A stretch of 64,000 bases of DNA from Ignavibacteriales bacterium UBA1304 (GTDB lineage Bacteria; Bacteroidota; Ignavibacteria; Ignavibacteriales; Ignavibacteriaceae), in assembly GCA_002307295.1 (NCBI GenBank), contig DBTY01000052.1:24714-88713 (forward strand), in the 5' to 3' direction. Made by a program: the position numbers and the translations under genes. The notes beneath the pieces were generated by a model. The model was not told the DNA's origin and ran no database searches. It was given only the letters and a program-made list of their open reading frames with translations. Positions 5,804-23,350 of the stretch are shown one piece after another. Every line of letters starts with the position of its first letter. Position 1 is the stretch's first letter.

Positions 5804-6328
5804 ATGAATGAAAAAATAGTTTTAATTGGCGATTCAATTACTTTTGGCTTTGAGACAAAGGAATTGCTGCCTGAATTTAATATTGTTAATAAAGGAATTT
5901 ACGGAGATAATACTACGGGCGTATTAGTCCGTTTGGAAAATGACGTAATTAAAGAAAACCCGGATAAAGTATTTGTTTTAATTGGGACGAATGATTTTGC
6001 GCTTGAAAGAAGCGATGAGGAACTAATAAATAACATTAGCGAGATTCTGGACGAATTGAGTGAGCGACTAAAAGATGCAAAGATTTATTTAACTCCGCTT
6101 TTGCCAACGCTGAATATTGATAACAGACCAAACGACAGAATAAGAGGCGTAAATTTAAAGTTGCGCTTACTGACCGAAAAATATAAAATAAATTATTTTG
6201 ACCTATACAATAAGCTTGTTAATGTGAATGGGGAGCTAAATGTTCGTTATACAATTGACGGATTGCATTTGAGCGAAGCCGCTTATAAAATTTGGGCGGA
6301 TTTTCTTAAAGAAGAATTACAAAAATAA
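5804..6328 (+). CDS. SGNH/GDSL-family hydrolase (esterase/acylhydrolase)
   Basis: SGNH blocks: LIGDSITFG (block I Ser), YGDNTTG (block II Gly), LIGTNDF (block III Asn), DGLHLS (block V Asp/His). GGAGA RBS upstream of the ATG. Confidence 0.8.
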   Translation: MNEKIVLIGDSITFGFETKELLPEFNIVNKGIYGDNTTGVLVRLENDVIKENPDKVFVLIGTNDFALERSDEELINNISEILDELSERLKDAKIYLTPLLPTLNIDNRPNDRIRGVNLKLRLLTEKYKINYFDLYNKLVNVNGELNVRYTIDGLHLSEAAYKIWADFLKEELQK

Positions 6329-6342
6329 AAGAGCTAAAAAAA

Positions 6343-6377
6343 CGTCAGAGCAAGCGCTTTTGCTCTGACGCTTTTCT
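6343..6377. terminator. Rho-independent-type hairpin between convergent genes
   Basis: Perfect 10-bp stem cgtcagagca / tgctctgacg with an 8-nt loop, an A-run upstream and a T-rich tail downstream. Sits between the stops at 6328 (+) and 6388 (-). Confidence 0.65.
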
Positions 6378-6387
6378 AAAAATATAA

Positions 6388-9300
6388 TTATTCTTCCGCT
6401 AACGTGTTATGCTCCGGAGCAAAGCCTAATTTTGCATTAACCTTTGCAAGGCCTTCAATGGCGGACTTATTAGAAGGCGAATTTTTTACTCCCCATTCAA
6501 ACATTGTCTTCGAAGAATCAAATATTCCGGCTGAATAAAACGCCTCGCCCAATCCTGCGCAGGCGCGCGAAGAGGAAGGGACAAGTTTAAGCTCTTCTGA
6601 AAAATAATCTTTCGCGGCGTCTAATTCCCCGGAAACTAATGCAATATTACCAGCTAAGTTCACTACGTCGGGATAATCAAGTTTGTAATTTCTTCTGTTT
6701 GATACATGGAAAGTTTCAGCCGCTATTTTAAACCATTTATTTGCATAAGTAAATTTTTGTTCTTCTGCGTAAGCTATAGCTCTTTCAAACGCCTCAATAA
6801 AAGTATCGTTATTAAGAGGATATTTTATTGGACAGGTCTTAAATTCTTTTCCTTTAATCCATATCTCGTCTGGCGACGCGCCCCATTTATCAGCAAATAT
6901 TTCTCCGTTAATTTTTAGTCTTTCAGCGTAATTGTTTTCGCCGTCCGATTTAAAACTTTTTGAACCATAATGATGGATAAAAACATCCGCCGCTATAACT
7001 GCTTTATAACCAGCAAGCTGAGCGCGCAGGCAATAATCGTCGTCTTCAAAATTACCGGGACTAAAACGCTCGTCCAAGCCGCCAAGCTCTTCAAACGTTC
7101 TTCTTTTTATAAGAGTACATAAGAAGGCGAGTCGCGGAAACTGGGTAATAACGCCTGCATTTTTTGTCTTTGCGTTTTGCGCGTATAGTTCCATTTCCTT
7201 AATAGACGAGTATTTGGCCTGAGAATCAAATTGCGCTCCGCTAACGGAATTGCTGATAGGTCCTACAACCCCAATATGTGGGTCTGATTCGGCTACGTCG
7301 ATTAATCTTTCGAGCCAGCCTTTGGTAACAACTGTATCGTTATTTAATATCAAAACATAAGAGCCCATGGCAGCTTTTATCCCCTGATTAACAGCGGCTG
7401 GGAATCCAAGATTCTCAGCATTAGCTATGACTCTTATTTCCGGATAAATATGTTTAACCTGCGCTATCGTGTCGTCAGATGAAGCGTTATCAATAAGTAT
7501 TATTTCGTAATTAAGTTTTGTGTAGAGCTTAACGCTTTCTATGCACTCTTTGGTATAGTTAAACTGATTAAATGTAACGAGTATAATGCTTACTATAGGA
7601 GGTTCTGAATATGCTAATGCGCGGGATGTTTTAAAGTCTTTGCGCGAAGTAAAACTCAAAAGATGCTGCAATCGTTTACGCATCATTGCGCTGGAAAATT
7701 GCGATGAGATTAATTCTTTCCCTTTTGCGGAAAATGACTCCCACAAAGATTTATCTGTATATAATAATATAGCTTTTTGGGCAAACTCTTTTGGGTCGTC
7801 TGTAATAAATGAATGAACTCCATTAATAATATTCATCCCTTCGGCGCCAATAGAGGTAGAAACCATTGGCAGCCCGTGCGAAAGCGATTGTCCTACTTTG
7901 CCCTTCATACCAGCTCCAAAGCGAAGCGGCGTAACAGTAACTCTGCATTTATTAAGATAAGGCTCAACTTCAGGTACCCAGCCTGTAACAATAATATCGT
8001 CGGAAGAAAGGGCAGTTATTCTTTCAGTGGGGTTATTGCCGACTATATAAAACTTAACGTCTGTTAGTCCCTTCTTAATTAAAGGAAATATTTCATTTAC
8101 AAAATAAAAGACAGCGTCTTCATTTGGGTTGTGGTTAAAGTTGCCTACGAATATAAAATCTTTTCGCTCGTCAAAACCAGAGGCGGAGTCGCGCGCATCG
8201 TGTACGTCGGGGATAACAAACACAGCTTTATCTGCTAAATCTTTTTTAAGAACATCTTTATCCTGCGCCGTAACAGTAAGTACGCAATCAGATTTTGTAT
8301 ACAAAGCAAGTTCTCGTTGTTTTGTCAATGCGGCTTCATTCAGCAGGTTGTTGTCTTTTAATAGATATGCTCTTCTTTGTTCGCGCAGGTAGTGGATATC
8401 AACCGAATCAATAATAACAGGCGTATCAGGGATTTCATTTCTAATCAAATCAATAAAGTAGTCTGCTATATGCCAAAAAGCTATATAAACAAAATCAAAC
8501 TTACGAGCTTTTAATTCAAGACTGCCAATTAATTCTTTAAGTATTGGCTGAACCGAAGGCGTATTGCGAATACCCCACCAGCTTTCGTAGTTGAACCAGT
8601 GAAATTCAACTCCCTGCATTTCGAAATCGTGGAAATATTCAGCGGCTTTTTCATCGGAGTATTGTTTGCCCATCATATGCGCATAAGTAACCTGACAGTC
8701 CAGGTCAATAAGTTGTTTTAAGGTATTGTAATGCCTTAAAGCTCCGGATGCTCTATCGGGCAGGGGAGGGATATCGTCAATGATTAAAATGCGCTTGCCC
8801 TGTTTGCGGTTAGAAAACTGATAAAGAAGTTTGGGAGCGTTGGGGTATTGCAAAGCAAGTTCGCTTTGCCATTTTTCAATAAACTTAGGCGCATTGATAA
8901 TCTGATATCTTTTTAATCCGACAGTAACGTCAGTCCCGTTAGTAACGCCTTCGTAATGGATAACATGAGACGAAGGGCAATAATAAATTTTGTAACCAAG
9001 TTTTCGAATGCCAAAACAGAGGTCGGTATCTTCAAAATATGCGGGAGCAAAACGATAATCAAATCCGTCCAGCTGGTTAAACAAACTGCGTTTAACCATT
9101 AGCGAGGCTCCGGAACAATAATCTACTTCTCTTGCAAAATTATAACGGGCGTCGATAATCTCGCCATTACGGCCGTAGTTCCAGCCGGTAGCGTCGTTAA
9201 AAATAACTCCGCCCGCTTCTTGTAATTTTTTGTTAGCAAAAATAAGTTTAGAGCCTGCGCCGCCTGCATCCGGATAATAAACAAAAATATTATATAAATT

Positions 9301-10044
9301 ATTAAGCCAGTCGGGCATAACTTCAGTGTCGTTATTCAGGAAGAGCACATATTCCGCGTCTGAATGACTAACGCCGATATTATTCCCGCCGATAAAACCC
9401 ACGTTGGAATTAATGCGCACGTATTTAAGCCTTTTGCCAAATGTTTCAAGATATTCTGGCGTTTCGTCAACCGAAGCGTTATCTACGGCAATGATTTCAT
9501 AATTCGGATATTTTGTATTTTTAAAAATTGAAGCGATGCATTTTTTAGTAAATTCAACTTTGTTATAACAGAGCAGTATTATTGATATTTTAGGAAATTT
9601 ATTCTCCTGATTCTGCGGCTTAATAACATCAGGCTGGCTTAAAATAAAATCTAATTTATTATCAACGTTAAATTCTATTTTTTTCGCGGCATCTAACAGA
9701 TAATCTATTATCTGCGGATGATTTTCGGTTTCTTTAGAAAATCTATCATAAAGCATAAAAGCTGATTTGTAATCGCCTTCTTTCTCATATATATTAGCTA
9801 AATAAAAAAGCGAATATAAATTAGCCCGGTCTACCTGCAGCGCGTTGAGGAAGAATTCTTTAGCGGCGGAAAAGATTTCTTTGTGATAATAAAGTCTTCC
9901 AATGCAAAAAAGATTTTCTGCCATTTCAGCGCCGTTAAGCTTGCGGAGTTTAATATCATCCAAAAGCGCAGTCGCCGAGTTTTCATATTTATCGTTGTTA
10001 ATTAGCGATTGAAGTTTGTTAAGCATATCCTCTGTTAAAGGCAT
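6388..10044 (-). CDS. Multidomain glycosyltransferase: TPR - GT2 - GT4-like (GT-B) - GT2 - TPR
   Basis: aa ~40-105 are TPR-like. GT2 no.1 (aa ~152-375) has ISIILLCYN, AVDNASVDET, FLNNDT, FEDTDLC. The GT-B/GT4-like region (aa ~417-795) has FVGNFNHNPNEDA, RFGAGMKGKVGQSLSHGLPMVSTSIGAEG. GT2 no.2 (aa ~816-1035) has VSIILVTFN, LIDNASSDDT, ILNNDT, FEDDDYC. The C-terminal TPR-like region is aa ~1085-1205. Confidence 0.8.
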   Translation of the reverse strand: MPLTEDMLNKLQSLINNDKYENSATALLDDIKLRKLNGAEMAENLFCIGRLYYHKEIFSAAKEFFLNALQVDRANLYSLFYLANIYEKEGDYKSAFMLYDRFSKETENHPQIIDYLLDAAKKIEFNVDNKLDFILSQPDVIKPQNQENKFPKISIILLCYNKVEFTKKCIASIFKNTKYPNYEIIAVDNASVDETPEYLETFGKRLKYVRINSNVGFIGGNNIGVSHSDAEYVLFLNNDTEVMPDWLNNLYNIFVYYPDAGGAGSKLIFANKKLQEAGGVIFNDATGWNYGRNGEIIDARYNFAREVDYCSGASLMVKRSLFNQLDGFDYRFAPAYFEDTDLCFGIRKLGYKIYYCPSSHVIHYEGVTNGTDVTVGLKRYQIINAPKFIEKWQSELALQYPNAPKLLYQFSNRKQGKRILIIDDIPPLPDRASGALRHYNTLKQLIDLDCQVTYAHMMGKQYSDEKAAEYFHDFEMQGVEFHWFNYESWWGIRNTPSVQPILKELIGSLELKARKFDFVYIAFWHIADYFIDLIRNEIPDTPVIIDSVDIHYLREQRRAYLLKDNNLLNEAALTKQRELALYTKSDCVLTVTAQDKDVLKKDLADKAVFVIPDVHDARDSASGFDERKDFIFVGNFNHNPNEDAVFYFVNEIFPLIKKGLTDVKFYIVGNNPTERITALSSDDIIVTGWVPEVEPYLNKCRVTVTPLRFGAGMKGKVGQSLSHGLPMVSTSIGAEGMNIINGVHSFITDDPKEFAQKAILLYTDKSLWESFSAKGKELISSQFSSAMMRKRLQHLLSFTSRKDFKTSRALAYSEPPIVSIILVTFNQFNYTKECIESVKLYTKLNYEIILIDNASSDDTIAQVKHIYPEIRVIANAENLGFPAAVNQGIKAAMGSYVLILNNDTVVTKGWLERLIDVAESDPHIGVVGPISNSVSGAQFDSQAKYSSIKEMELYAQNAKTKNAGVITQFPRLAFLCTLIKRRTFEELGGLDERFSPGNFEDDDYCLRAQLAGYKAVIAADVFIHHYGSKSFKSDGENNYAERLKINGEIFADKWGASPDEIWIKGKEFKTCPIKYPLNNDTFIEAFERAIAYAEEQKFTYANKWFKIAAETFHVSNRRNYKLDYPDVVNLAGNIALVSGELDAAKDYFSEELKLVPSSSRACAGLGEAFYSAGIFDSSKTMFEWGVKNSPSNKSAIEGLAKVNAKLGFAPEHNTLAEE

Positions 10045-10076
10045 AAATATAATTCCTGAGTAATTTGTTTATCTAA

Positions 10077-11021
10077 TTATTTTCGGTAAAGACTACAATA
10101 GTAATCTGCCGCATCGTCCCATGCGTCTGATTCTTTCCATCTTTTTGCTATGCGTGCGGCGTTATTAAAATTTATTCTTTTTAGCGGTTCGGAAAAATCT
10201 GTTTGTTCATTTAATTCAAATTTACATTTAATATTTAATCTTTTAGAAAGCTCCTTTGCAAAACGGGATGTGAACTTCCATTGGCTTTCCGTATAGCCGC
10301 TCGGATTAATTTTAACTATCTGTTTTTTTGATGAAATAAACTCGCTTACAAAATAATTATAAACCTCTGCCAGCAAACTAATGTGAATGTTATCTCTGAT
10401 ATAATCAGGAGTATTGACGCCGGGCGTTTTATCTTCAAACCAGTTTTTAACCAGATAATTTGTAAACCGCGGTTCCTCAAAAGGACCGAACGGATTTGGT
10501 ATAACAAACTTGCCGAGTTTAACATTTTTAATCCTGCAGTAATATTCAAATATCTGCCAGGTTAAACCTTTTGAAAAACCATAAGGAGAAAACGCTGCGA
10601 GCGGTTTATTCCCTTTCCCTTCGTTTTGTTCAAATACGCTTCCGGTAAGTATAACGCCTCTGATTTTGCCTTCGTTAATTATATCAAGCGTTTGAGAAAG
10701 ATTATGAGTATTATTTTGTATGGCGGAGTTAACGTCAAACTCAAAACTTTTATAATTTCTTACATCAGCCGCATGATGACATAAAAGATCAAAGCCGCTT
10801 GCGCTTTCTAAAAGGCGCAAAAAATTATTATCTCCAAACGAGCAGTTAAAAACAGGTCTGCTAATTCTCACTATCCTCAAGACTCGCTCTTTGCGAATCC
10901 CTTCATAGTCGTCCGGTTTGTTTTTGGTAAAGGTCGTATAAACATTATGTCCGGCTTCAGAAAGAGTTTTTACAAACCAGTAGCCGGTAAATGAAGATGC
11001 GCCTGTGAATAAAATGTCCAT
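10077..11021 (-). CDS. NAD-dependent epimerase/dehydratase/reductase (extended SDR)
   Basis: N-terminal Rossmann motif ILFTGASSFTGYW and catalytic YGFSK (YxxxK). The reaction step cannot be assigned by eye. A 4-reductase role is inferred only from its position after the RmlC-like gene. Confidence 0.7.
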   Translation of the reverse strand: MDILFTGASSFTGYWFVKTLSEAGHNVYTTFTKNKPDDYEGIRKERVLRIVRISRPVFNCSFGDNNFLRLLESASGFDLLCHHAADVRNYKSFEFDVNSAIQNNTHNLSQTLDIINEGKIRGVILTGSVFEQNEGKGNKPLAAFSPYGFSKGLTWQIFEYYCRIKNVKLGKFVIPNPFGPFEEPRFTNYLVKNWFEDKTPGVNTPDYIRDNIHISLLAEVYNYFVSEFISSKKQIVKINPSGYTESQWKFTSRFAKELSKRLNIKCKFELNEQTDFSEPLKRINFNNAARIAKRWKESDAWDDAADYYCSLYRK

Positions 11022-11023
11022 AA

Positions 11024-11569
11024 TTATTTCAGATGATAGTTTTCGTTAAAGTCAGGGTGATTTTTATCTTTCTCCGATATAATTACCGGTTGAATAGGCC
11101 ACTTAATATTAATCGCAGGGTCGTTCCAGCGCAAGCCTCTTTCGTATTGCGGAGCGTAAAACTCCGTTACTAAATAAAACGCTTCGGAGTTGTCGGTTAA
11201 CGTTATAAACGAATGCGCAAAGCCTTTGGGAACATAAAGCATTGTACGGTTGTCCTCGTTGAGCTCCACGCCGAACCATTTTAAAAACGTATCGGATTCT
11301 TTTCTTAAGTCAACGATAACATCGTAGAAAGAACCTTTGAGGCATCTGATTATTTTAGTCTCCGCTTTAGGAGCTAATTGGTAATGTATACCGCGGAGAG
11401 TCCCTTTATCTTTGCTGGTAGAATTATTTATCTGGACAATCTTATTATCAAGTCCAAGTTTTTCAAATTCATTAACGCAAAAGAAACGGGCAAAAAAACC
11501 TCTATCGTCTCCGCGTTTTTCAAGGTCAATTGTATAAGCCCCTTTAAGAGGCGTTTCAGTAAAAATCAT
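11024..11569 (-). CDS. NDP-4-dehydro-6-deoxyhexose 3,5-epimerase-like cupin (RmlC/RfbC family)
   Basis: RmlC-family pattern: TPLKGAY, DDRGFFARFF, LRGIHYQ, KIIRCLKGSFYDVIVDLR, VPKGFAHSF. Size ~180 aa. Confidence 0.8.
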   Translation of the reverse strand: MIFTETPLKGAYTIDLEKRGDDRGFFARFFCVNEFEKLGLDNKIVQINNSTSKDKGTLRGIHYQLAPKAETKIIRCLKGSFYDVIVDLRKESDTFLKWFGVELNEDNRTMLYVPKGFAHSFITLTDNSEAFYLVTEFYAPQYERGLRWNDPAINIKWPIQPVIISEKDKNHPDFNENYHLK

Positions 11570-11584
11570 TTTTTAATAGTCCTT

Positions 11585-12574
11585 CTATTTTAATCTTTCT
11601 TTCAGCGCTTTTAGGCGGATATATTTTGAGCCTTCAAAATCAGCCAGGCTGAATTTATTTTTTATGAATTTTTTGTGAAGCTCTTCCATCCCAGAATCAA
11701 GGTTATAGGAAAGTTTAAAATTTGGAAGCAGCTTATACAGCAGATCAAAATTCACCCTGTAATTTCTTGGATCGGAACCAACCTCTCCTGTAAAAACAAC
11801 GTTAGCGTTTGGAATAAGTTTCTTTACTTTATTAGCCACGTCCTTTACCTGATAGTTTTCTGAGTTCGCGCCGATATTTATCGAGCGGTTATGCACGTCT
11901 TCTCTGGGAGCTTTAGCCAAAGCTATAAAAGCTCTTGCAATATCGCGGCAGTGAATAAGCGGACGCCATGGCGTTCCGTCGCTCATAATCCTAATATCTC
12001 CGCGCGTAAACGCGCACGCCAAAAGATTATTAACTACAAGGTCAATTCTTAACATAGGGGAATATCCATAAGCGGTTGAATTCCTTAAAATGATTGGAGA
12101 AAAATCAGCGTCGGCAAGTTTTTTAATTCCGGTTTCAGCGTCAACTTTGGAAATTGCGTAAGCTGAAACAGGATTAAAATTAGCCGATTCGTCTAAATCT
12201 AATTTTTCGCCTTTGCCATAAACAGAGCAGCTGCCGGCAAATAAAAACCGCCCAACTCCAGCATGTTTAGCCATTTTGGCCAGATTAATAGACCCGTTTC
12301 TGTTAATATTGTAAGTGAGCGATGTGTTAATATCGCCCATTGGGTCGTTTGATATAGCGGCTAAATGCATAACGCAATCGTAGCCTTCTAAATCGTCAGG
12401 CGTAAGCGTTCTTATATCTTTATCCAATTCGATATCCGCTTTTACAAGAGGTTCAAATTCGCAGCCTTCATAAAAGGAAAGGTCGCATCCGGTGACGCTA
12501 TGCCCTTCCTGTTTTAGTAAATCAACTAAATGGCTGCCAATATATCCTTTGTGTCCGGTTACAAAAACTTTCAT
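11585..12574 (-). CDS. NAD-dependent epimerase/dehydratase family protein (GalE-like extended SDR)
   Basis: ATG at 12574 (MKVFVTGHKGYIGSHL) preferred to the upstream ATG at 12619, which would overlap rfbF. GSCSVYG ... YAISK catalytic Ser/Tyr/Lys. Lacks the acidic dyad or SDKCY signature of NDP-hexose 4,6-dehydratases. Confidence 0.75.
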   Translation of the reverse strand: MKVFVTGHKGYIGSHLVDLLKQEGHSVTGCDLSFYEGCEFEPLVKADIELDKDIRTLTPDDLEGYDCVMHLAAISNDPMGDINTSLTYNINRNGSINLAKMAKHAGVGRFLFAGSCSVYGKGEKLDLDESANFNPVSAYAISKVDAETGIKKLADADFSPIILRNSTAYGYSPMLRIDLVVNNLLACAFTRGDIRIMSDGTPWRPLIHCRDIARAFIALAKAPREDVHNRSINIGANSENYQVKDVANKVKKLIPNANVVFTGEVGSDPRNYRVNFDLLYKLLPNFKLSYNLDSGMEELHKKFIKNKFSLADFEGSKYIRLKALKERLK

Positions 12575-12587
12575 AATAATTACTCCG

Positions 12588-13382
12588 TTAAATAACTTTC
12601 CATGGCGCATTTCCGGCATTCCATAACGAGTTGAGATAATCGCGGTCGCGCTGAGTATCCATGCAGCTCCAGAAGCCTTTGTGCTTGTACATATTTAATT
12701 CTCCATCTTTAGCCAATCTGACTAACGGTTCTTTCTCAAGGACGCATTCATCGTCTTTAGAAAGATACTTAAGAAATTCTTTTTTGAAGAAAAAATATCC
12801 TCCGTTAATCCAATTGTCTGTAAAGTCTGGTTTTTCGGCAAATTCAAGAACTTTGTCGTCGTCCAATTTAATTTCGCCAAAACGGGAAGGCGGATTTACG
12901 CCAAGGACGGTTCCGGTTTTGTTGTTTGAAAAATGATAATAATATTCTTCGCCTAGATTAGCGTCAGTCAGACCGTCGCCATAAGTAACCGCAAAATGAT
13001 CTGCAGCGCCAAGATATTTTTCCGCCGCTCTGGCAATGCGGGCTCCGGTCATTGTATACTCGCCTGTATAAGCAAGCGTAACTTCCCAATCTAAATTGTG
13101 ATCTATCGAGTGCACTGTTACGTTATTGCTTTTAAGGTCGACGGTAAAATCGCTGTTGAGCGACGTATAGTTAAGGAAATAAGATTTAATTATTTCCGAT
13201 TTAAAACCCGTGCAAAGAACAAATTTTATAAATCCATATTTCCTGTAATATTTCATAATATGCCAAAGCACCGGGAAATTGCCTATCGGTACCATTGGTT
13301 TTGGACGGAACTCAGTTTCTTCTTTCAATCTGGTCCCTAGGCCTCCGCATAAAATAAATACCGGAATTTCATTAATTGTCAT
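12588..13382 (-). CDS. rfbF: Glucose-1-phosphate cytidylyltransferase
   Basis: Near full-length by-eye alignment with Salmonella/Yersinia RfbF/DdhA: ILCGGLGTRLKEET..PKPMVPIG..P.LWHIMK.Y, TGARIARA (cf. TGGRLKR), TYGDGLTD, PPSRFGEI, EKP, INGGYFF, GFWSCMDTQRD, LW..G.APWK. Confidence 0.9.
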   Translation of the reverse strand: MTINEIPVFILCGGLGTRLKEETEFRPKPMVPIGNFPVLWHIMKYYRKYGFIKFVLCTGFKSEIIKSYFLNYTSLNSDFTVDLKSNNVTVHSIDHNLDWEVTLAYTGEYTMTGARIARAAEKYLGAADHFAVTYGDGLTDANLGEEYYYHFSNNKTGTVLGVNPPSRFGEIKLDDDKVLEFAEKPDFTDNWINGGYFFFKKEFLKYLSKDDECVLEKEPLVRLAKDGELNMYKHKGFWSCMDTQRDRDYLNSLWNAGNAPWKVI

Positions 13383-13437
13383 TTTAACTCCTGGCAGTAA
13401 TTAATCCGCAAAAACAAGCGATTCGTTTTTAGAATAA

Positions 13438-16400
13438 TTACCAATTTGTTAACGCAAGAACATTTTCTTTAGTTAGTATTCTAAATAAATTTTCATTTAA
13501 TAAATAATTTTGCAAATGAGAATTGTCTACATTTAACGAACTGTTATTCCCGCCGCATTCGTTGCAGTAGGGAATATCTTTTGTCTCCAAATCTTCAATT
13601 TCTTCTTTATAACTTTTATTGTCGGAAAAACTTTGTCTTGCTAAAAAGTACATGCTGGAATTAAACAGCTCCTCGCTGGAATTATGCTTCAGCAAACCAG
13701 GGAAAATAAGATTCCTGTTTTTTGTAGGAGGCGCGCAGCAGGGAATAATATTCCCGTGAGCGTCCATAACAATATTCTTGTATAGCCATTCGCATGTATA
13801 TTTATTTTCGGGCTCGCTTTTGCTTAATTCATTTTGCGGAAAACTGTTGAGCAAGGTCGTCCATGTTTTTTCCGGCTGATAATTTAATTCCACATTATTA
13901 TGAGACTCTTTTTCCCATTTATCAGAGCTGTTGTTCCAGTTGCGCAGAAAGCTAATCCGCTTGCTTAAGCTTTTTACCTCAGCCGGAATTGTAATTTCAG
14001 GATCGGCGGCGCTGACGTCAAAAGGCGTTGCAAGATTTATTTCGTCAATCCCAATTTCTTTGGCAGTATTTACTGCTAAATCTATTTCGTGTTTATTGTG
14101 GTTAAATATTAAAAACTGCCAGACTAAAGTAGGCTTGGATAAACCGTACTTCTTTTTGGCTTCAACAAGCTTTTTCATATTCTCCATAACAAGCTCAAAC
14201 TTTCCGCCTTTTCTGTATTTTTCATAAGTCTTTGCCGAAGCTCCGTCTACTGAAAAGACTAGATAATCCAATCCGGAATTAACGATAGCTTCCGCGTCTA
14301 TAGGCAGCGATAGGTTAGTAGAAAGAGAAGTAAATAGTTTGTATTCCTTTGCAAGGGCAATGAACTCAGGCGTTTGTTTATTGATAAATGGTTCGCCGTA
14401 ATTAAAAAATAAAATATGAGTAGCGTAAGGGCCAAAGCTATTCAGGTATTTTTTATACGTCTCTAGAGATAGCAGCCCATTTTCCCAAAGGAAATCTTTT
14501 TTATCCTGAACGTCGTGCAAACATCCGGGGCAGTGCAAATTGCATCCGTTTGAGGGATCAAGTAGCAGACCGAACGGCTTTGCAAGCATATAATTATGTT
14601 TTCTGAAATACTGATATTTTAATACAAGTAAGTTTGTAATTTTAGCAATAAATAAATTAGCGTCGGTAGCAGAACTAAAAGAGCCTTTTAGCGCCTGCGT
14701 AAGATTATCAGTTAATTTATCAATATGATCGATGAACGAAAAAATATTTCCTGCGCTATAAGTCATAATATCAGCTTCATGTATTATGTTATTAACGTAA
14801 AGCGCATTATCAATAGGCGCATTGATATTTCCGTTTAAGGCAAATACGTATTCAATATTTTCTTTTGCCGCAATATTTCCTGGATCGGCTAACAAAGCTT
14901 TGTTAAAATAACGTAAAGCCTCGTAAGGATTATTTTCTAATATCTCAATTATACCCATATCATTTAGCGCGTCCGGATTATCCGGAGCTATGCTAAGAAG
15001 TTTATCTAATATTTTTCTTGCTCCGCTAAAATTTTTCTGAACTAATATCTTTTCCGCTTCGACAATCATTTTTTGAATATCGTTTTTCCTGAAAGCCTGG
15101 AAGTTAAATGCATCCTTCGTTAAGTCCTTATCATCGTTCTTATTTTTAGGGATAACCGGGGCGGCGGTTTTACTGCAGGGAATAATTTCAGCTTTTAGCG
15201 ATTTAACATAAACTGACAACTCGCGCAGATCGCTATTAATATTTAAATCGCGCGGGATAAAACTACCTGAAGATTCAATCGTAATTTCATATTCCGGCTC
15301 TGTGCCGTCAATTGCTATTTCAACCGGCGCGGTTTGGTAATTATTTTTTAACTCAATTTTATTTGTAACGACGTCGTTAACTTTTATAGTTATTACAAGC
15401 GGAGACGTTTTGTAACAGGCCATGGCCATATTTGTCACAGTAAACGAAATTACTGCCGCATTGTTTAGCGTAATGAAAAATTTTCCTTTTTTTGCAATCC
15501 ATCTGATACCGTTTTCTTCCGGATAAAACCCTTCTGCAAATGCGCAGCTAATTCCGCTTTCTTTATCCGAAATAATTTCTGAAGGTTTTACAATGTATTT
15601 GTTCCATGCAATTATTGATTTCAGGACAAAATTTTCTGAGAAATCCATTCCATCCGCTAGGCATTTTTCTATTTCTTTCTTCCAGCGCCATGTAATTAAA
15701 TCAGACTGCCAATAATCGGGAGAAAAATGGTAAGGATAAAAAACTCCCCCGTTCATGTCTCTGCTTTTTAAAAGAGTATAATGCCGTTCTAAAATATCAG
15801 CTCTTGTTTTTAAAACCGGGGAGTAAAACGAACGAACGTCTTTATTAATCATAAATGAAGTACGTATTCGTTTGCCCAATTCGCTTTCAGTATTTGAGTG
15901 GCTGATTATGCTGGACAAAAACTCTGCCGGTAAAACCGAGCATGCATACCCATGTCTTTCAAGCAAAGCATCGGAAAGGTACTTTGCGGTATTGGCGCTC
16001 CAGTCGCTAATGAAAAAAACTTTTCCTGCGTAAACGCCTGCAAATCTATCCGGGCTTTTAACCGTATAACCAAGCTGAACTAATTTATCTTTTAACAGAA
16101 AAATCAATTCATACATGATTGTTTCGGCCTCGGCAAAAAGCGGCTGCAACTGTTCCAGATTTTCTGTTTCTGAATAAGTAAACCAATTCTTAAACAGCTG
16201 AACAGAGTTATTAATAAAAGCGCCGACGCGGTCAGGCAGAACAATTTTGTTCATCTCCATTATTTTAACAGAAAGAGAAAGCGATTTCATTCGCATAAGA
16301 TGATTTCTTACAGATAATTCCTTCTTTTGCATTTCTTCCATAAACTCAATCGGGAATTCCATCAGAAATAGTTCGACTAAATTAATCAACTGATTTTCAG

Positions 16401-18243
16401 GCGGAGCCTGCTGCGGCGCCAATGGCGGCGCCTGGTTAGACACAGTTTGTAAAATATCGTCGCCGTAAATATGCACAAGGCTAAATGTGGGATGCAGCCA
16501 TGATATTTGACTGAGCAATTCTGCATTAATAAATGCAGAAGGCGGATGCTTAATTACATAACGTTCCTGTTCGCTTAAACTGAAAAAAGAATCAATGCAG
16601 AGCTTTAATTCATTCTTGCCGAATTTATCATTTATAACAATAATAAAATCCATATCTGAAAGTCCGGGAACGGAAACCGTGCCCATCTGATAAATACTCT
16701 GTATGCCGCCGCATTGAACAATAGTATCCACATATTTCTTTTTTACTGAATCGTAAAAATCCATTTCAAATTTTTGCGGAAAATCAGTTAGGAGGTACGA
16801 CGCGCCGTTTATCTCAGCAAAGCAATTAGACTCGTTTTGGTTCTCTTTGGAAATGGAACCTGATTCATCTGAAATAAAATTAGCCCAAAGGTCGCCTTCG
16901 CCTCCGGCGCATTGAGGCAGATGTAATAACTCGTCTTCCCATATATCATTAGTAGAAAGGAATTTTTGTTTTTCATTTTCAAACAGAGTCTCAATTAGTT
17001 CGGCCGAACGCCCAAGCATATCCGGATAGAGCTCTCTCTTTAACCATTCAGGAATATCAACCTGCATGTCATGCCCGGCGATATCTTCGTCGGCTTCTTT
17101 AAGCGCTTTAATATATAAATTACTATTTCTAAGTTTAGTCGCCTGTTCTATCAGGCTGTATAAATTATCAGGAATTTCTTTTCGTAATAAAGTATACAGA
17201 TGCTTTTTATAAATAAAAGCGCCGTGCAGTTCATAATAAAATATGGGCATTAGCAGCGCAACCTGAACGTATTGTTTTAGCGCGAATAAATCAGAAGGGA
17301 AATTTCCACATATCCAATCGTGACGCATTCCATACGTAATATTCCAAAAATCTGTTCGTCTTTCTATTAATGAAGGACGGATTGAATAATTAAGGTAATT
17401 ATCCGCAGCATATAAAACTTTTGAATAATCCATCAGCACAAGCGGAAGCCAGGTCTGCGGAAAATATTTCATGTCCTGCTCTGTGTAAACGTATATGCCG
17501 TGGTGCTGAAACGGATCAATCTCTTTGAATAAATTACTGATGACTTTGTTTTTTGCTCTCAGCTCTAAAAGCGCTGAAGGAGAAACGGCAGTTTGCCGAT
17601 TTAAAATAGCAAGCGAATCGCAATCGCTTGAACCATAAACATAATCTAAAGTGGCAAGACTGCCATGCAGCAGAAAGCAGGAGAGATACTGTTGTAAGTC
17701 AATTACTAAATCGTTTAATTCAGTAAGAGAGCCAAGTAAAACAGGTTCGTCTAAATATTCTTTAGCGTCAAATTCAGGTATTTCGTCAATATCAATTGTG
17801 ACTGCTCTTGTTCCTGCTGGAAGAATAATATTTTCAAATTCTTTATAAAATAGTGAAATATACTCGGCGGCCGAAGTTTCTGATATCCTAAGCTCCGCAG
17901 AATACTTGCCAATCCACGATCTTAATTGTTCAAAAGAGTTTGGAGTATACGCGCAAAGAATATTTATTAGCTTAGCCGCTTTATCTAAATTCAGGCGCTT
18001 TACTTCTATATCGCTGTTGTTATCGGCGTCGTTTAGATAAAACTGTAAAAGCCCATGAAAGAGATTTTGCAGCTGCGATAAAATTATTTCGACAGGGGAG
18101 AGTAATTTGAATACCGGAGCCGTATTAAAGTTTTCTGGATTTGAAATTATAAATTCGCCCGGATCAGAAAATAAATTTAATATCTGCTCGTCATCTTTAA
18201 GGAATTTATCTCCAGTTCTTTTATAGCTGTTTTTATCTGGCAT
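13438..18243 (-). CDS. Giant multidomain protein: 2x Pol-beta-type nucleotidyltransferase-like modules + beta-sandwich + TPR + radical-SAM with SPASM-like C-terminus
   Basis: Uninterrupted 1601-codon ORF. Its ATG lies 6 nt after the upstream stop. Motifs: HGSLATLDYVYGSSDCD (aa 193-209, nt 17617-17667) and GTVSVPGLSDMD (aa 521-532, nt 16648-16683). GFYPEENGIRW...DLRELSV spans aa ~905-1017, and TPR-like repeats span aa ~1055-1130. CNLHCPGC (aa 1234-1241, nt 14521-14544) comes with YGEPF, STN and SVDG. The cysteines C1484, PCC(1502-1503) and CNEC(1560-1563) are SPASM/twitch-like. Confidence 0.7.
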   Translation of the reverse strand: MPDKNSYKRTGDKFLKDDEQILNLFSDPGEFIISNPENFNTAPVFKLLSPVEIILSQLQNLFHGLLQFYLNDADNNSDIEVKRLNLDKAAKLINILCAYTPNSFEQLRSWIGKYSAELRISETSAAEYISLFYKEFENIILPAGTRAVTIDIDEIPEFDAKEYLDEPVLLGSLTELNDLVIDLQQYLSCFLLHGSLATLDYVYGSSDCDSLAILNRQTAVSPSALLELRAKNKVISNLFKEIDPFQHHGIYVYTEQDMKYFPQTWLPLVLMDYSKVLYAADNYLNYSIRPSLIERRTDFWNITYGMRHDWICGNFPSDLFALKQYVQVALLMPIFYYELHGAFIYKKHLYTLLRKEIPDNLYSLIEQATKLRNSNLYIKALKEADEDIAGHDMQVDIPEWLKRELYPDMLGRSAELIETLFENEKQKFLSTNDIWEDELLHLPQCAGGEGDLWANFISDESGSISKENQNESNCFAEINGASYLLTDFPQKFEMDFYDSVKKKYVDTIVQCGGIQSIYQMGTVSVPGLSDMDFIIVINDKFGKNELKLCIDSFFSLSEQERYVIKHPPSAFINAELLSQISWLHPTFSLVHIYGDDILQTVSNQAPPLAPQQAPPENQLINLVELFLMEFPIEFMEEMQKKELSVRNHLMRMKSLSLSVKIMEMNKIVLPDRVGAFINNSVQLFKNWFTYSETENLEQLQPLFAEAETIMYELIFLLKDKLVQLGYTVKSPDRFAGVYAGKVFFISDWSANTAKYLSDALLERHGYACSVLPAEFLSSIISHSNTESELGKRIRTSFMINKDVRSFYSPVLKTRADILERHYTLLKSRDMNGGVFYPYHFSPDYWQSDLITWRWKKEIEKCLADGMDFSENFVLKSIIAWNKYIVKPSEIISDKESGISCAFAEGFYPEENGIRWIAKKGKFFITLNNAAVISFTVTNMAMACYKTSPLVITIKVNDVVTNKIELKNNYQTAPVEIAIDGTEPEYEITIESSGSFIPRDLNINSDLRELSVYVKSLKAEIIPCSKTAAPVIPKNKNDDKDLTKDAFNFQAFRKNDIQKMIVEAEKILVQKNFSGARKILDKLLSIAPDNPDALNDMGIIEILENNPYEALRYFNKALLADPGNIAAKENIEYVFALNGNINAPIDNALYVNNIIHEADIMTYSAGNIFSFIDHIDKLTDNLTQALKGSFSSATDANLFIAKITNLLVLKYQYFRKHNYMLAKPFGLLLDPSNGCNLHCPGCLHDVQDKKDFLWENGLLSLETYKKYLNSFGPYATHILFFNYGEPFINKQTPEFIALAKEYKLFTSLSTNLSLPIDAEAIVNSGLDYLVFSVDGASAKTYEKYRKGGKFELVMENMKKLVEAKKKYGLSKPTLVWQFLIFNHNKHEIDLAVNTAKEIGIDEINLATPFDVSAADPEITIPAEVKSLSKRISFLRNWNNSSDKWEKESHNNVELNYQPEKTWTTLLNSFPQNELSKSEPENKYTCEWLYKNIVMDAHGNIIPCCAPPTKNRNLIFPGLLKHNSSEELFNSSMYFLARQSFSDNKSYKEEIEDLETKDIPYCNECGGNNSSLNVDNSHLQNYLLNENLFRILTKENVLALTNW

Positions 18244-18249
18244 ATTGTC

Positions 18250-18756
18250 TCACTTTATCGCTCTAAGAAAAAATTCTATACTGCCGACTACGTTAAAAAA
18301 ATGTCGTCTGGCATATTCCTTAACAATTGCAGTTTTATTCTCCCATTCCGGGAAGTAGTTATATTTAACATTTTCAGTCCTAAACCTTGCTTTAGTCGTT
18401 TCGTTAGCCGAACCGACTAATTTCCCTTCTTCAAAAAACAGAAAACTGTGTTCGTTGAAATGGACATGGTGATAAGGATTTACAAGATTATATTCCATAC
18501 TTGTAATATAAGGGACTCCAATATGAACAAGCGCGTCAGGCGCGGCAACGCGCCATAGTTCTTCAATTACGTATAGATAATTCTGGCTGTGTTCAATTGA
18601 ATGCCATGCGAGAACTTCATCAAAAAAATTATCGTCAAAAGGCCATTTATCCTTATCCATATCAAAATGGACGTCGGCTTTTAGATTAGAATTAATATCG
18701 GCGTTAATATAGTCGTCAATATATTTTGTTCCGCATCCTAAATGAAGTTTATTCAT
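18250..18756 (-). CDS. Class I SAM-dependent methyltransferase (small, Methyltransf_11-like)
   Basis: ATG at 18756 (MNKLHLGCG) has a GAGGA RBS 7 nt upstream and avoids overlap with the upstream gene, so the track start at 18792 was rejected. Motif I LHLGCG, then INADIN and AWHSIEH. Confidence 0.65.
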   Translation of the reverse strand: MNKLHLGCGTKYIDDYINADINSNLKADVHFDMDKDKWPFDDNFFDEVLAWHSIEHSQNYLYVIEELWRVAAPDALVHIGVPYITSMEYNLVNPYHHVHFNEHSFLFFEEGKLVGSANETTKARFRTENVKYNYFPEWENKTAIVKEYARRHFFNVVGSIEFFLRAIK

Positions 18757-18772
18757 AGCGCAATCCTCATAA

Positions 18773-20689
18773 TTATTTAGTCCGCCCATCAAATAAATTG
18801 CTAAACCCGCGTCTTCCGCTCATATAATCTTTATCGCGCGCAGGCGCTACGGGAGAGGACGCGTCGGCTAAATATTGCAAACTCCAGCCGACATCTAAGG
18901 CTATTTTGCCTAAATGTTTTTTTATACGCCCGGCAAGTATTTTACCCGTTATGCTTGCCGCAATAATAGCTATGTCAAAATCATATTCCTGAACTTCTTC
19001 CCACAGTTTATCTAAACTGCCAAAAGCCTCCGCGCCTGAATGAGGCGTGTAAATGGCTCCTGCTAATTCTGGTTTTGACTGGGGCATGCCTGCTGATTTA
19101 AATGATTCCCTGTAGTCGTCGTTTTGCAAAAGCCGTGCAAATTTTACAGCGGCGTTTCCAATCAACAATATTTTGCCTTTGCTTAAAAGAGGCAATAAAT
19201 AACCCTGGTCTAAAAGCTCCGCGTTAATTACTACGTCAAATTCGTTTTGTAAATAAACATTATGCTGATGGTATGCTGCAAAAGTTTTATCAGTATCGGC
19301 GCTCCATTGTGCGTTAACGGTTTTTCTGTGAGAACCAAGTATATCGGCTTCAAGCAAGATATCAAAATATTCCTTTTGCGCTTCTGTAAAAACGTTTGTC
19401 TGTAGCGCGCATGGATTTAATCCAAGATTTTTCTCTAGAACTGCGGCTTCCGTTTGTAAATCCAGACGTTCAATATCAATTTTGCCGTAAGCCAAAAATC
19501 TTGCTTCAATATCGCCTATGCGAACCATCGAAAAAGGAAGCTTAGCGGCAATAGCCGCATATAGTTTTTCAATAATAATTTTTACGCGTTCATGCGTATA
19601 ATATTCATTAAAGAATCCCGACGTAAATACTTCGGGCGATTTTAAATCATCATTCGTAATAGCAGGCGTTTGTAAATCCGCCGATATATTTTTAGCAATA
19701 AGATTGATTCTCTTGTTTCCTGCTCCGTCTTTTTCGTCTGTAATGTAGAGTCTTTCAATTTCAAATTTACTCCCAAAGTTATTTCTTATTTTATCTTCAT
19801 TATAAAAAGCTACATGGGCCGGATCAGGGAACGATTTTTCAAACGGACAGTGAATAATTAAATATCCCCCCGGCTTTAACGCGTTTGAGATTTTATCTAA
19901 TACCAGAGGAAGGTCCTCTTCATAAATGTGCTCCAATACGTCAAACGCTATAACGCTGTTAAAATACTTTGGCGGAAGCTGCATATCTGCAAAAGTAGAA
20001 TTGCAGTAGCTGATTCTTTGCGCTATTTCTGGGGGCTCGTTTGCTCTTATTTTAATTGCGCCGTTTATGGCGTCAGTCTGAATATCAACCCCATAGACAA
20101 AATGCCCGTTGCGGGCAAGTATGACGCTATTGAGGCCAAGATTACAGCCCAGGTGTAAAACGGTTGCGCCAAGTTTGGCTCTAAACGTTTTAAGCAGTTT
20201 ATAATCGTGATGGTTATACCGAAAAGCAAAATCAAGCGGAATTAAATTCTTTTCTTTCGCTAAGTATTGGGCGTTAAGCGCTGTTGTCTTAAAGCTGTCC
20301 CTGGGTAAGCCATACAGTATATTCTTATAATCTGGTTTCTTTTTTATTTGACGGGAAAAATATTCAATGGCTTTCTTGCAGCCGGATTTATCCTTTTGAA
20401 GGAATGATGTTTTAATAAAATCCCAATAAAAAGAATCTAGCTCGTAATCAGTCCTTTTTTCCGATTCATACAGGTTAATTAATTCAGAAAGGACTTTATG
20501 TTTATTATCTCCATTCCTAAGAGCAAGTCTTAAATGCTCTTCGTAATTATTATAATCCAGTCCATCCGGAATATCATTTAGCGCATAATTTACCGGCGAA
20601 AAAATGCCGTCAGGGTTTGTTTCTAAGCCTGATTTCGAGTTTAGCCCGGCGATATTAGCGTTAGTTCCAAATAAGTCGGAGGAAGACAT
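18773..20689 (-). CDS. Fusion protein: N-terminal unknown region + class I SAM methyltransferase + C-terminal GT-D/DUF1792-like putative glycosyltransferase domain
   Basis: Methyltransferase at aa ~175-285: VLHLGCNLGLNS, VYGVDI, AFDVLEHI, LKPGGYLII. C-terminal aa ~365-610: SMVRIGDIEARFL, KILLIGNAA, DIAIIAASITGKILAGRIKKHLGKIALDVG, resembling my recollection of the DUF1792 (RFGDGE ... Gp.a..la ... aiDiG) pattern. The C-terminal call is tentative. Confidence 0.55.
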   Translation of the reverse strand: MSSSDLFGTNANIAGLNSKSGLETNPDGIFSPVNYALNDIPDGLDYNNYEEHLRLALRNGDNKHKVLSELINLYESEKRTDYELDSFYWDFIKTSFLQKDKSGCKKAIEYFSRQIKKKPDYKNILYGLPRDSFKTTALNAQYLAKEKNLIPLDFAFRYNHHDYKLLKTFRAKLGATVLHLGCNLGLNSVILARNGHFVYGVDIQTDAINGAIKIRANEPPEIAQRISYCNSTFADMQLPPKYFNSVIAFDVLEHIYEEDLPLVLDKISNALKPGGYLIIHCPFEKSFPDPAHVAFYNEDKIRNNFGSKFEIERLYITDEKDGAGNKRINLIAKNISADLQTPAITNDDLKSPEVFTSGFFNEYYTHERVKIIIEKLYAAIAAKLPFSMVRIGDIEARFLAYGKIDIERLDLQTEAAVLEKNLGLNPCALQTNVFTEAQKEYFDILLEADILGSHRKTVNAQWSADTDKTFAAYHQHNVYLQNEFDVVINAELLDQGYLLPLLSKGKILLIGNAAVKFARLLQNDDYRESFKSAGMPQSKPELAGAIYTPHSGAEAFGSLDKLWEEVQEYDFDIAIIAASITGKILAGRIKKHLGKIALDVGWSLQYLADASSPVAPARDKDYMSGRRGFSNLFDGRTK

Positions 20690-20915: not shown

Positions 20916-21419
20916 TTAAAATTCAACATATTTATCTTTTGGGGCTCCGCAGACAGGGCATTTATCCGGGGCTGAGCCAATGTGAGTATCGCCGCAAATA
21001 GGGCAGACGTAAACTTTTGCAGAAGGGATGTCTTTTTTCTCTTTTACGCTTTCTTTTGCGTCGTTATACATTTTCTCGTGAGTCTTTTCCGCTTCATATG
21101 CGCCGTGCATTGATCTTACGGCTCCTTTTTCTCCCTGCAATTCAGCTACAGCCATAAAAGCGGGATACATTTCTTCAACTTCGTAGTTTTCTCCGCCGGC
21201 TGCTGCCGCAAGGTTATCTACTGTGTCTTTTATCAGCTCAAGGACTCTAAAGTGGTTTGTTGCGTGAACTTTTTCCGCAAAGGCAATAGCTCTAAAAAGT
21301 TTTGCAACTTCCGGATATCCTTCCCGGTCAGCCTTATCGGCATAGATTGAATATTTCATGTGAGCCTGGCTTTCGCCTGCAAAAGCGGCTTCCAGATTTG
21401 CTTTGGTCATTAATTTCAT
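20916..21419 (-). CDS. rbr: Rubrerythrin
   Basis: Ferritin-like di-iron motifs (EAAFAGESQAHMKY, EKVHATNH, GENYEVEEMYP, EAEKTHEKMY) plus a C-terminal rubredoxin-like CPICG...CPVCG. Confidence 0.9.
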   Translation of the reverse strand: MKLMTKANLEAAFAGESQAHMKYSIYADKADREGYPEVAKLFRAIAFAEKVHATNHFRVLELIKDTVDNLAAAAGGENYEVEEMYPAFMAVAELQGEKGAVRSMHGAYEAEKTHEKMYNDAKESVKEKKDIPSAKVYVCPICGDTHIGSAPDKCPVCGAPKDKYVEF

Positions 21420-23103: not shown

Positions 23104-23235
23104 AATGAAACTTTTTTTATGTGTGATCTGATAATTTAACAAAAATTGGGTAACAATTTGTACTTTTTTACATGAAAGGAGTAAATAGTTTAAAACATAT
23201 TTTGAGAATAATCAAAAATTCCGTAATTTTACGCC

Positions 23236-23308
23236 GCACTCATAGCTCAGTTGGTAGAGCATCTGACTCTTAATCAGCAGGTCGCGGGTTCGAATCCCGC
23301 TGAGTGCA
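23236..23308 (+). tRNA. tRNA-Lys (anticodon CTT)
   Basis: Acceptor stem gcactca/tgagtgc, D-arm tagctcagttggtagagc, anticodon loop ctCTTaa, T-arm gcgggttcgaatcccgc, discriminator A. CCA is not encoded. Confidence 0.9.
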
Positions 23309-23314
23309 CAAGTC

Positions 23315-23350
23315 AAAGCCTTGCAATATTATAAGTTGCAAGGCTTTTTT
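23315..23350 (+). terminator. Rho-independent terminator after tRNA-Lys
   Basis: Perfect 12-bp stem aaagccttgcaa / ttgcaaggcttt with a 9-nt loop, running into a T-tract (tttttt). Confidence 0.75.

Follow-up and report, generated by a model that had tools for sequence, protein, structure and literature searches.

We describe here an eight-gene operon, g1 to g8, in a 64,000-nt stretch of DNA (hereafter the window) from Ignavibacteriales bacterium UBA1304 (GCA_002307295.1, contig DBTY01000052.1, 24,714-88,713 of the forward strand). With moderate confidence, we read this operon as encoding a cytoplasmic system for the assembly and tailoring of a protein O-glycan, of the type specified by flagellin glycosylation islands but detached from the flagellin gene. 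The reading is built on the gene content of the operon, the solubility of its products, its conservation in other lineages, the folds of the modules within its largest protein, g3, and the orthology of its last gene, g8, to genes that adjoin flagellin.

The product of g8 (6388-10044, minus strand, as for all genes of the operon) is a 1218-aa triple glycosyltransferase (GT) with the architecture TPR-GT2-GT4-GT2-TPR. Among species-representative genomes, its closest relatives came from metagenome-assembled genomes (MAGs) of Ignavibacteriales and Melioribacteraceae. Homologues number 3009 at E ≤ 1e-50, and ~80 of them share the length (~1210 aa) and architecture of g8 at 50-57% identity, among them proteins of Ignavibacterium album JCM 16511 and Melioribacter sp. 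We compared the neighborhoods of seven orthologues (loci L086 and L089, L090, L091, L092, L093 and L094), which come from I. album (L089; CP003418.1, 2,909,682-2,933,317), Melioribacter sp., an Ignavibacteriales MAG (L086) and four further assemblies that include the nearest outgroup of the clade of the window; all seven lie outside that clade. At each of the seven loci, a gene for a ~505-aa GT2-TPR protein comes directly after the g8 orthologue, flagellin, fliS and fliD come next, and no Wzx, Wzy, Wzm-Wzt, other exporter, flippase or priming transferase is encoded within 10 kb. The GT2-TPR protein is closest to the SunS peptide glycosyltransferase (82 bits); the SunS family comprises S-glycosyltransferases, and the likeness is in keeping with a transferase that initiates glycosylation on a protein. 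For the GT2 domains of g8, the match to SunS is weak (31 bits). In a neighbor-joining tree built from p-distances without support values, g8 of the window is nested among the flagellar-locus members, and the distances that separate it from them do not exceed those among the members themselves.

The genes upstream of g8 in the flagellar loci are hypervariable, yet they draw on the same types of module as the cluster in the window. They encode a radical S-adenosylmethionine (SAM)/SPASM-GT4-TPR fusion, WbsX-methyltransferase fusions and a B12-radical SAM enzyme, and further tailoring genes in these loci specify a TagF-like-WbsX-methyltransferase fusion with a cytidylyltransferase, a CMP-sugar synthetase fused to an RraA-like domain, and a UDP-galactopyranose mutase. 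A 1924-aa megaprotein of the flagellar loci shares segments of g3 that contain TPR repeats and a fold resembling a carbohydrate-binding module (CBM), and g2 is homologous to the methyltransferase domain of an 852-aa flagellar-locus protein of Melioribacter sp. Elsewhere, g8-like proteins are themselves fused to radical SAM/SPASM and methyltransferase domains (P0244, P0248, P0265). With its invariant block and its hypervariable tailoring block, the arrangement looks like an undescribed flagellin glycosylation island. We found no literature description of an Ignavibacterial flagellin glycosylation island, and none that links radical SAM enzymes to flagellin glycosylation islands.

A variant arrangement is present on a Melioribacteraceae MAG contig (L085; CAZCBD010000059.1, 360-9412), where orthologues of g4-g7 come directly after a g8-like gene (47% identity, lacking the C-terminal TPR) and a DrrAB-like ABC-2 transporter pair lies beyond them in convergent orientation; this contig begins just before g8.

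The complete cluster is a real, selected and modular unit. It is rare: in a database of 5.8 billion proteins, from which the orthologue counts for g3 were drawn, g3 has only three full orthologues (42-43% identity), and the complete cluster occurs in four lineages in total. The contigs of the three other lineages (L001, L003 and L004) keep the whole cluster in the same gene order with varying outer flanks, and this gene-for-gene conservation in all three places the cluster beyond chance. Identities between lineages are 80-89% for g4-g6 (87-89% for g4), 63-68% for g8 and 42-55% for g1 and g3, with g1 being 44-55% identical to its orthologues on the three contigs and g2 sharing 81% identity with its 168-aa L004 orthologue. 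Modularity is evident in L003 and L004, where a gene of its own encodes the TPR-radical-SAM part of g3 and the N-terminal part carries additional, fused methyltransferase domains.

The eight co-directional open reading frames (ORFs) span 20689-6388, and the intergenic gaps from g1 to g8 are, in order, 16, 6, 55, 13, 15, 2 and 32 nt. These values use internal ATG starts for g2 (18756) and g5 (12574), both of which are backed by orthologues that align from residue 1. A first-pass annotation, made from the letters of the DNA, had described this layout and had counted two methyltransferase domains and up to four GT domains, all of which were recovered here with Pfam and NCBIfam profiles. It had also held that the operon encodes only soluble proteins and no export machinery, and this too was borne out. 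No 19-residue window in any of the eight proteins reaches a Kyte-Doolittle value of 1.6, so that none has a transmembrane segment by hydropathy; the PMT_2 protein encoded nearby has 41 windows that reach it. Pfam was also run on the remaining ORFs of the window, down to a length of 100 aa, and detected no protein of the Bac_transf, WecA, Wzx, Wzy, Wzz or ABC-2 types; none of the components of a Wzx/Wzy pathway (initiating phosphoglycosyltransferase, Wzx, Wzy, Wzz) is encoded in the window. What Pfam did identify there were two-component kinases, NMO, Cpn10, a GDSL hydrolase, rubrerythrin, the PMT_2 GT-C protein and a fucose/N-glycan catabolic region with a SusC-like receptor. Flagellin islands are characterized by soluble glycosyltransferases without a lipid-carrier priming enzyme, flippase or oligosaccharyltransferase, and by hydropathy and Pfam the same holds for the window. 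A strong bidirectional terminator hairpin (6334-6379, both strands; 20-bp stem with a T tract on each strand) closes the operon after g8. A sigma-70 promoter scan returned 70 sites compared with 59.8 ± 7.8 in shuffled sequences, which is no enrichment and uninformative for this phylum.

Four genes of the operon are predicted to supply a nucleotide sugar. The g4 protein (12588-13382) is likely an RfbF-type glucose-1-phosphate cytidylyltransferase; it matches TIGR02623 over its full length with 298.3 bits, marginally under the cutoff of 300.25, and the substrate assignment is therefore likely, not certain. By its profile scores, g6 (11024-11569) is a cupin of the RmlC family, that is, an NDP-4-keto-sugar 3,5-epimerase of the dTDP-4-dehydrorhamnose 3,5-epimerase type (NDP, nucleoside diphosphate; PF00908, 224 bits; TIGR01221, 190.2 bits, cutoff 155.75). 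The two remaining genes encode short-chain dehydrogenases/reductases (SDRs); the two SDRs and the RmlC-like cupin named in the first-pass annotation are supported by profile matches. NDP-hexose 4,6-dehydratases contain a catalytic Thr/Ser followed by Asp/Ser-Glu (or Asp-Lys), in addition to YxxxK. The g5 protein (11585-12574), an extended SDR of the GalE or C4-dehydrogenase type, contains GSCSVYG, with no Asp or Glu after the Ser, and YAISK. It falls far under the 4,6-dehydratase cutoffs (TIGR02622, 22 bits; TIGR01181, 42 bits), and the canonical dehydratase motif is present neither in g5 nor in the other sugar genes. GalE-type matches rank above RmlB, and the best PDB match is 6vo6 (81 bits), which is probably Cj1427. 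The divergent SDR encoded by g7 (10077-11021; PF01370, 41 bits) carries a YGFSK motif and has a sole PDB match at E 0.0026; it is a candidate C4-reductase from its position and the logic of the pathway.

These assignments suggest a route, via C4 oxidation, 3,5-epimerization and C4 reduction, to a cytidine diphosphate (CDP)-L-hexose that would keep its 6-hydroxyl. The route has a counterpart in the Campylobacter jejuni heptose trio, which consists of the C4-dehydrogenase Cj1427, a C3/C5-epimerase and a C4-reductase (PMC10680097). The logic is the same, with an SDR lacking the dehydratase residues, an RmlC-type cupin and a second SDR yielding an L-sugar that retains its terminal hydroxyl. However, the C. 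jejuni enzymes use GDP-heptose, whereas the carrier in the cluster would be CDP, from an RfbF-type enzyme acting on glucose-1-phosphate, and the identity is low (the 81-bit match).

The methyltransferases of the operon reside in g1 and g2. The 638-aa g1 protein (18773-20689) consists of an N-terminal region, a class-I SAM methyltransferase domain (residues ~165-285; PF08241) and a GT-D-fold glycosyltransferase domain (~371-609; PF22882, 105 bits; NF040628, 80 bits, cutoff 75). A comparison with PDB sequences aimed at the GT-D domain returned methyltransferase matches only. The g2 protein (18250-18756) is a small SAM methyltransferase of 168 aa with an LHLGCG motif and a weak match to Pfam Methyltransf_11/23 (24 bits).

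The 1601-aa g3 protein (13438-18243) contains two nucleotidyltransferase (NTase) modules, a CBM-like β-sandwich, TPR repeats and a radical SAM domain. Module A (residues ~50-375; 17119-18096) is a Pol-beta-type NTase with a helical domain, in which G194, S195, D207, D209, D243 and H248 are invariant among 70 sequences. Module B (~485-840; 15724-16791) is a second NTase-like module with invariant G521, S529, D530 and D532, and standalone relatives of the g3 modules match PF01909. In an AlphaFold (AF2) model of module A (pLDDT 87.7), the best Foldseek matches were AadA, ANT(9) and LinB (probability 0.99-1.0, E ~1e-2, TM-score 0.45-0.5), a modest resemblance to aminoglycoside/lincosamide O-nucleotidyltransferases. 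A second AF2 model of g3 has a pLDDT of 79 overall and ~90 across module B. Judged by motifs and modeled folds, both modules are Pol-beta nucleotidyltransferases, with the G-[SG]...D-x-D signature, a third carboxylate and the α/β fold, in agreement with the two NTase-like modules noticed in the first-pass annotation.

Residues ~888-1020 (15184-15582) are modeled as a β-sandwich whose Foldseek matches are CBM61, CBM35, CBM36, CBM4 and the carbohydrate-binding domain of BcsB (E 1e-5 to 1e-4, TM-score 0.44-0.51). A weak match to EF-P at residues 902-990 (E 0.18), which might have hinted at EarP-like biology, is read as chance because this region folds as the CBM-like β-sandwich. The TPR repeats follow at ~1060-1145 (14809-15066; Pfam TPR_19/TPR_2 and PDB consensus-TPR matches). 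The radical SAM domain (~1226-1565; 13549-14568; PF04055, 53 bits) carries the motif CNLHCPGC at 1234-1241 and a reduced Cys-rich C-terminal extension. Of the radical-SAM/SPASM domain proposed earlier, the radical SAM part thus stands and the SPASM part does so only partially: the SPASM score is 18.6 bits, below the cutoff of 21.5, and only five Cys residues lie beyond the motif (1484, 1502, 1503, 1560 and 1563), whereas a full SPASM domain has 7-8 Cys and two auxiliary clusters. We read the auxiliary region, from its sequence, as a reduced, Twitch-like domain.

The NTase pair has a wide distant kinship. A HMMER search with g3 residues 1-1060 returned 1395 cluster representatives, and a metagenome scan gave 79 distant loci (L006-L084); a genome scan with the g3 alignment gave no match, and a word-index search with the g3 N-terminus found one protein only. 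In these relatives, modules A and B are either adjacent separate genes (~430 aa and ~372 aa) or a fusion of ~800-1100 aa. They were observed in polysaccharide loci from diverse environments and many phyla. Usable flanks were available for 53 loci, with Wzx abutting the pair at five, a B12-radical SAM gene within 2 kb at 16 and a GT4 gene within 2 kb at 13.

AadA/ANT(3'')(9), ANT(9) and LinB nucleotidylylate hydroxyl groups of sugars. Module A has in common with them the G-S...D-x-D...D signature and the layout of NTase plus helical domain. The likeness is weak (~10% identity), and g3 joins two such modules in tandem to CBM-like, TPR and radical SAM regions within one protein. Relatives are found in glycan loci rather than in resistance contexts. 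A tentative and rather doubtful possibility is that g3 and the standalone NTase-pair family, often located beside radical SAM enzymes, represent an undescribed glycan-tailoring machine, in which tandem ANT-like NTases would act on a sugar bound to protein or lipid, activating or attaching a group in nucleotidyl or phospho linkage, and the fused radical SAM domain would then introduce a radical modification, guided by the CBM-like and TPR regions. The system of this clade would in that case be uncoupled from the flagellum and may have a new cytoplasmic target.

The components can be joined into a scheme in which flagellin would be the acceptor. CDP-glucose would be made by g4, oxidized at C4 by g5, epimerized at C3 and C5 by g6 and reduced at C4 by g7 to give the CDP-L-hexose. 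The three GT domains of g8 would build a conserved oligosaccharide backbone on a protein-linked primer. A further sugar, possibly the CDP-activated one, would be added by the GT-D domain of g1 and O-methylated by the methyltransferases of g1 and g2. Finally, g3 may dock on glycan and protein through its CBM-like and TPR regions, with its two ANT-like NTases and radical SAM domain adding further decoration. An acceptor that exits via the flagellar type III system needs no lipid carrier, flippase, polymerase or exporter, and a system of the flagellin type thus explains both the all-soluble content and the lack of export machinery. Ignavibacteria are flagellated or have full flagellar gene sets (PMC3534657, PMC3362086), and flagellin glycosylation islands typically include methyltransferase and NDP-sugar genes (PMC5109656). 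A glycoproteomic study assigned protein-linked glycans of ~1.3 kDa to Ignavibacteria (bioRxiv 10.64898/2026.04.15.718822), the only hint toward an Ignavibacterial flagellin glycan.

Several points weigh against this scheme. No flagellin, FliS or FliD homologue is encoded in the 64-kb window or in the 3.3 kb to its left (L095), nor in L001-L005, a search that takes in 10 kb around each of the three full orthologous clusters. The SunS-like GT2-TPR gene, present at all seven flagellar loci, has no homologue in the window or in the full orthologous clusters. With neither the SunS-like partner nor flagellar neighbors, we infer the target of the cluster in the window from its relatives. The GT-D domain of g1 or a GT2 domain of g8 may substitute as the initiating transferase. 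Flagellin glycosylation in Ignavibacterium is so far a prediction. The tree in which g8 nests among flagellar-locus proteins lacks support values, as noted above. Lastly, distant relatives of the NTase pair lie in Wzx-type polysaccharide loci, and a PMT_2 GT-C membrane glycosyltransferase is encoded two genes upstream. The comparison of orthologue neighborhoods that the first-pass annotation proposed favors protein (flagellin) glycosylation, its preferred reading, over an O-antigen or exopolysaccharide locus, since all seven g8 orthologues lie beside flagellin without exporters. The support is partial, given the location of the cluster in the window and its three orthologues away from flagellar genes, the TPR repeats, which capsule polymerases share, and the distant NTase-pair relatives in Wzx-type loci.

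An alternative that we consider unlikely is that the operon makes a lipid-linked surface glycan, O-antigen- or capsule-like, which would be built on the cytoplasmic face by soluble, peripheral multi-domain polymerases and capped by methylation, with priming and an ABC exporter or flippase encoded elsewhere. Soluble capsule polymerases of >1100 aa with TPR are established in ABC-transporter-dependent systems (PMC5974469, PMC11666461), and the TPR repeats, earlier taken as a sign of a protein target, are accordingly not diagnostic. The architecture of g8 and g1 is compatible with a soluble multi-domain polymerase and a terminating methyltransferase, and methyltransferase-GT fusions resemble chain terminators, but the flagellar-locus orthologues have the same architecture. 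Matches of the g8 GT2 domains to chondroitin and heparosan synthases, the JGI label of g8 ('O-antigen biosynthesis protein') and the nearby PMT_2 protein all favor a surface glycan, as do the distant NTase-pair loci, of which five have an abutting Wzx and many contain GT4, UDP-glucose dehydrogenase and NeuB genes. Yet no exporter, flippase, priming transferase or ligase is encoded within 10 kb in the four full clusters (that of the window and those of L001, L003 and L004) or at the seven g8-orthologue loci, and no Wzm/Wzt or KpsMT exporter was found in the window or in 11 related loci. The DrrAB-like ABC-2 pair convergent to the L085 variant could be cited in favor of export; it was considered as Wzm/Wzt or KpsMT and rejected, as NCBIfam places it with DrrA/DrrB and NodI. 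A surface glycan also leaves the invariant linkage of g8 orthologues to flagellin unexplained.

It is similarly improbable, in our view, that the cluster has been uncoupled from flagella and now modifies another intracellular target, which may be another secreted or cytoplasmic protein, a polymethylated polysaccharide (as with mycobacterial MMP/MGLP) or a small molecule or peptide that carries sugars and undergoes maturation by the radical SAM domain. Such retargeting would accord with the separation of the cluster from flagellar genes in all four lineages, the missing SunS-like initiator, the all-soluble content with several methyltransferases, and the GT-D domain of g1, the g3 NTase pair and g4-g7, none of which is found in the flagellar loci. 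The best NCBIfam matches of g8 and g1 include the mycofactocin glycosyltransferase and methyltransferase, far under their cutoffs. In comparison with the flagellar-locus orthologues, the TPR regions of g8 reach just 23% and 39% identity; however, its catalytic domains still reach ~60%, and low conservation of the TPR regions extends through the whole family, beyond the clade of the window. No homology evidence ties the cluster to the mycobacterial system, though no search was aimed at such a link. Furthermore, no candidate precursor-peptide ORF, peptidase or transporter lies around the cluster, and the CBM-like domain and three GT domains point to an oligo- or polysaccharide rather than a small aglycone. 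Maturation of a ribosomally synthesized and post-translationally modified peptide was rejected as the main model, there being no small precursor-like ORF, peptidase or exporter/transporter around the cluster and the SPASM region being reduced.

Flagellin-type O-glycosylation, the reading we prefer, is already known as a kind of system from Geobacillus islands of types I-V (PMC5109656), Clostridioides difficile type B (PMC5207246) and Caulobacter FlmG (PMC7591256). The cluster resembles these islands in its soluble cytoplasmic GTs (some with TPR), NDP-sugar genes and methyltransferases and in having no lipid carrier, flippase or exporter. The g8 orthologues adjoin flagellin-fliS-fliD as in such islands, while the cluster in the window is itself away from flagellar genes and, unlike the flagellar loci, has no SunS-like GT2-TPR gene. 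It differs further in its three-domain 1218-aa GT, in a CDP-hexose route where flagellin islands have dTDP-rhamnose or CMP-nonulosonate, in its GT-D domain and in its NTase-NTase-CBM-TPR-radical SAM megaprotein; for none of these did we find a description in any flagellin island. The group 2 capsule polymerases Cps1B, Cps3D and Cps7D are, like g8, large soluble proteins (1100-1300 aa), and combine two catalytic transferase domains with TPR (PMC5974469, PMC11666461). Their TPR mediates oligomerization or scaffolding, not recognition of a substrate protein (PMC5974469, PMC11666461). They have TagF-like phosphotransferase domains, a lipid-linked poly-Kdo primer and adjoining kpsMT-type exporters, none of which is present in the cluster. 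We found no paper that describes the overall composition, as the first-pass annotation had anticipated.

What is new is therefore an Ignavibacterial island, a three-domain GT, detachment from flagellin, a dehydratase-free CDP-hexose route and the g3 megaprotein. If the reading is right, Ignavibacteria have a conserved, undescribed flagellin glycosylation centered on a three-in-one GT with hypervariable tailoring enzymes, and the window holds a rare version in which the GT moved off the flagellin gene and gained a CDP-L-hexose pathway, a GT-D enzyme and the g3 fusion. The most novel part of the finding is the chemistry of g3, which we can only propose, and the orphan NTase-pair family. Radical SAM and ANT-like NTase chemistry on protein-linked glycans is essentially uncharted, and with the NTase pair occurring in ~1400 protein clusters from polysaccharide loci, assignment of a function would annotate a large orphan family.

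Two genes flank the cluster in all four lineages and are not present in the flagellar-locus relatives. A rubrerythrin gene (20916-21419, minus strand; Pfam) lies directly upstream of g1, as it does in L001, L003 and L004 (79-82% identity), and no terminator was found between it and g1. Speculatively, rubrerythrin may be an accessory that protects the radical SAM domain or supplies it with electrons. Downstream, a convergent gene (5804-6328, plus strand; 62-67% identity among lineages) encodes a 174-aa GDSL/SGNH hydrolase without a signal peptide. Upstream of rubrerythrin is the gene for the PMT_2 membrane glycosyltransferase (GT-C, ArnT/PMT-like; 523 aa; 21571-23142, minus strand), which also has a counterpart near the L004 cluster (49% identity), though not near L001 or L003. 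Horizontal transfer of the operon as an island was considered and set aside: its GC content of 0.37-0.39 equals that of the flanks, and a tRNA-Lys gene 2.5 kb upstream is the sole supporting feature.

Apparent frameshifts split several genes in the loci compared, namely those for GT2-TPR, flagellin and FliD in L086 (13644-14745, 15369-16254 and 16697-18097) and most of the sugar genes in L003 (14346-19678). These are probably assembly errors of long-read MAGs, with pseudogenization as the alternative.

At the left end of the window, the ORF at 64-1491 (plus strand) encodes the C-terminal portion of a TPR-histidine kinase of 713 aa whose start lies before the window, as seen on L095 (2657-4798), a 13.9-kb JGI contig from sample 3300001213 that covers the same region and extends 3.3 kb further leftward. 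On the other side of the operon, a 1-kb non-coding stretch between PMT_2 and the fucose-utilization genes contains the tRNA-Lys (CTT) gene (23236-23309, plus strand) followed by a hairpin terminator (23315-23347). The region 24140-62785 encodes an FGGY kinase, a class II aldolase, L-fucose isomerase, an MFS transporter, an SSF symporter, an S9 esterase, a ROK protein and a SusC-like TonB receptor, together with glycoside hydrolase (GH) family proteins that comprise GH95, two GH29 fucosidases, GH2, GH20, GH92, GH94, GH130, GH125 and GH3. This content suggests the degradation of fucosylated or N-glycans.

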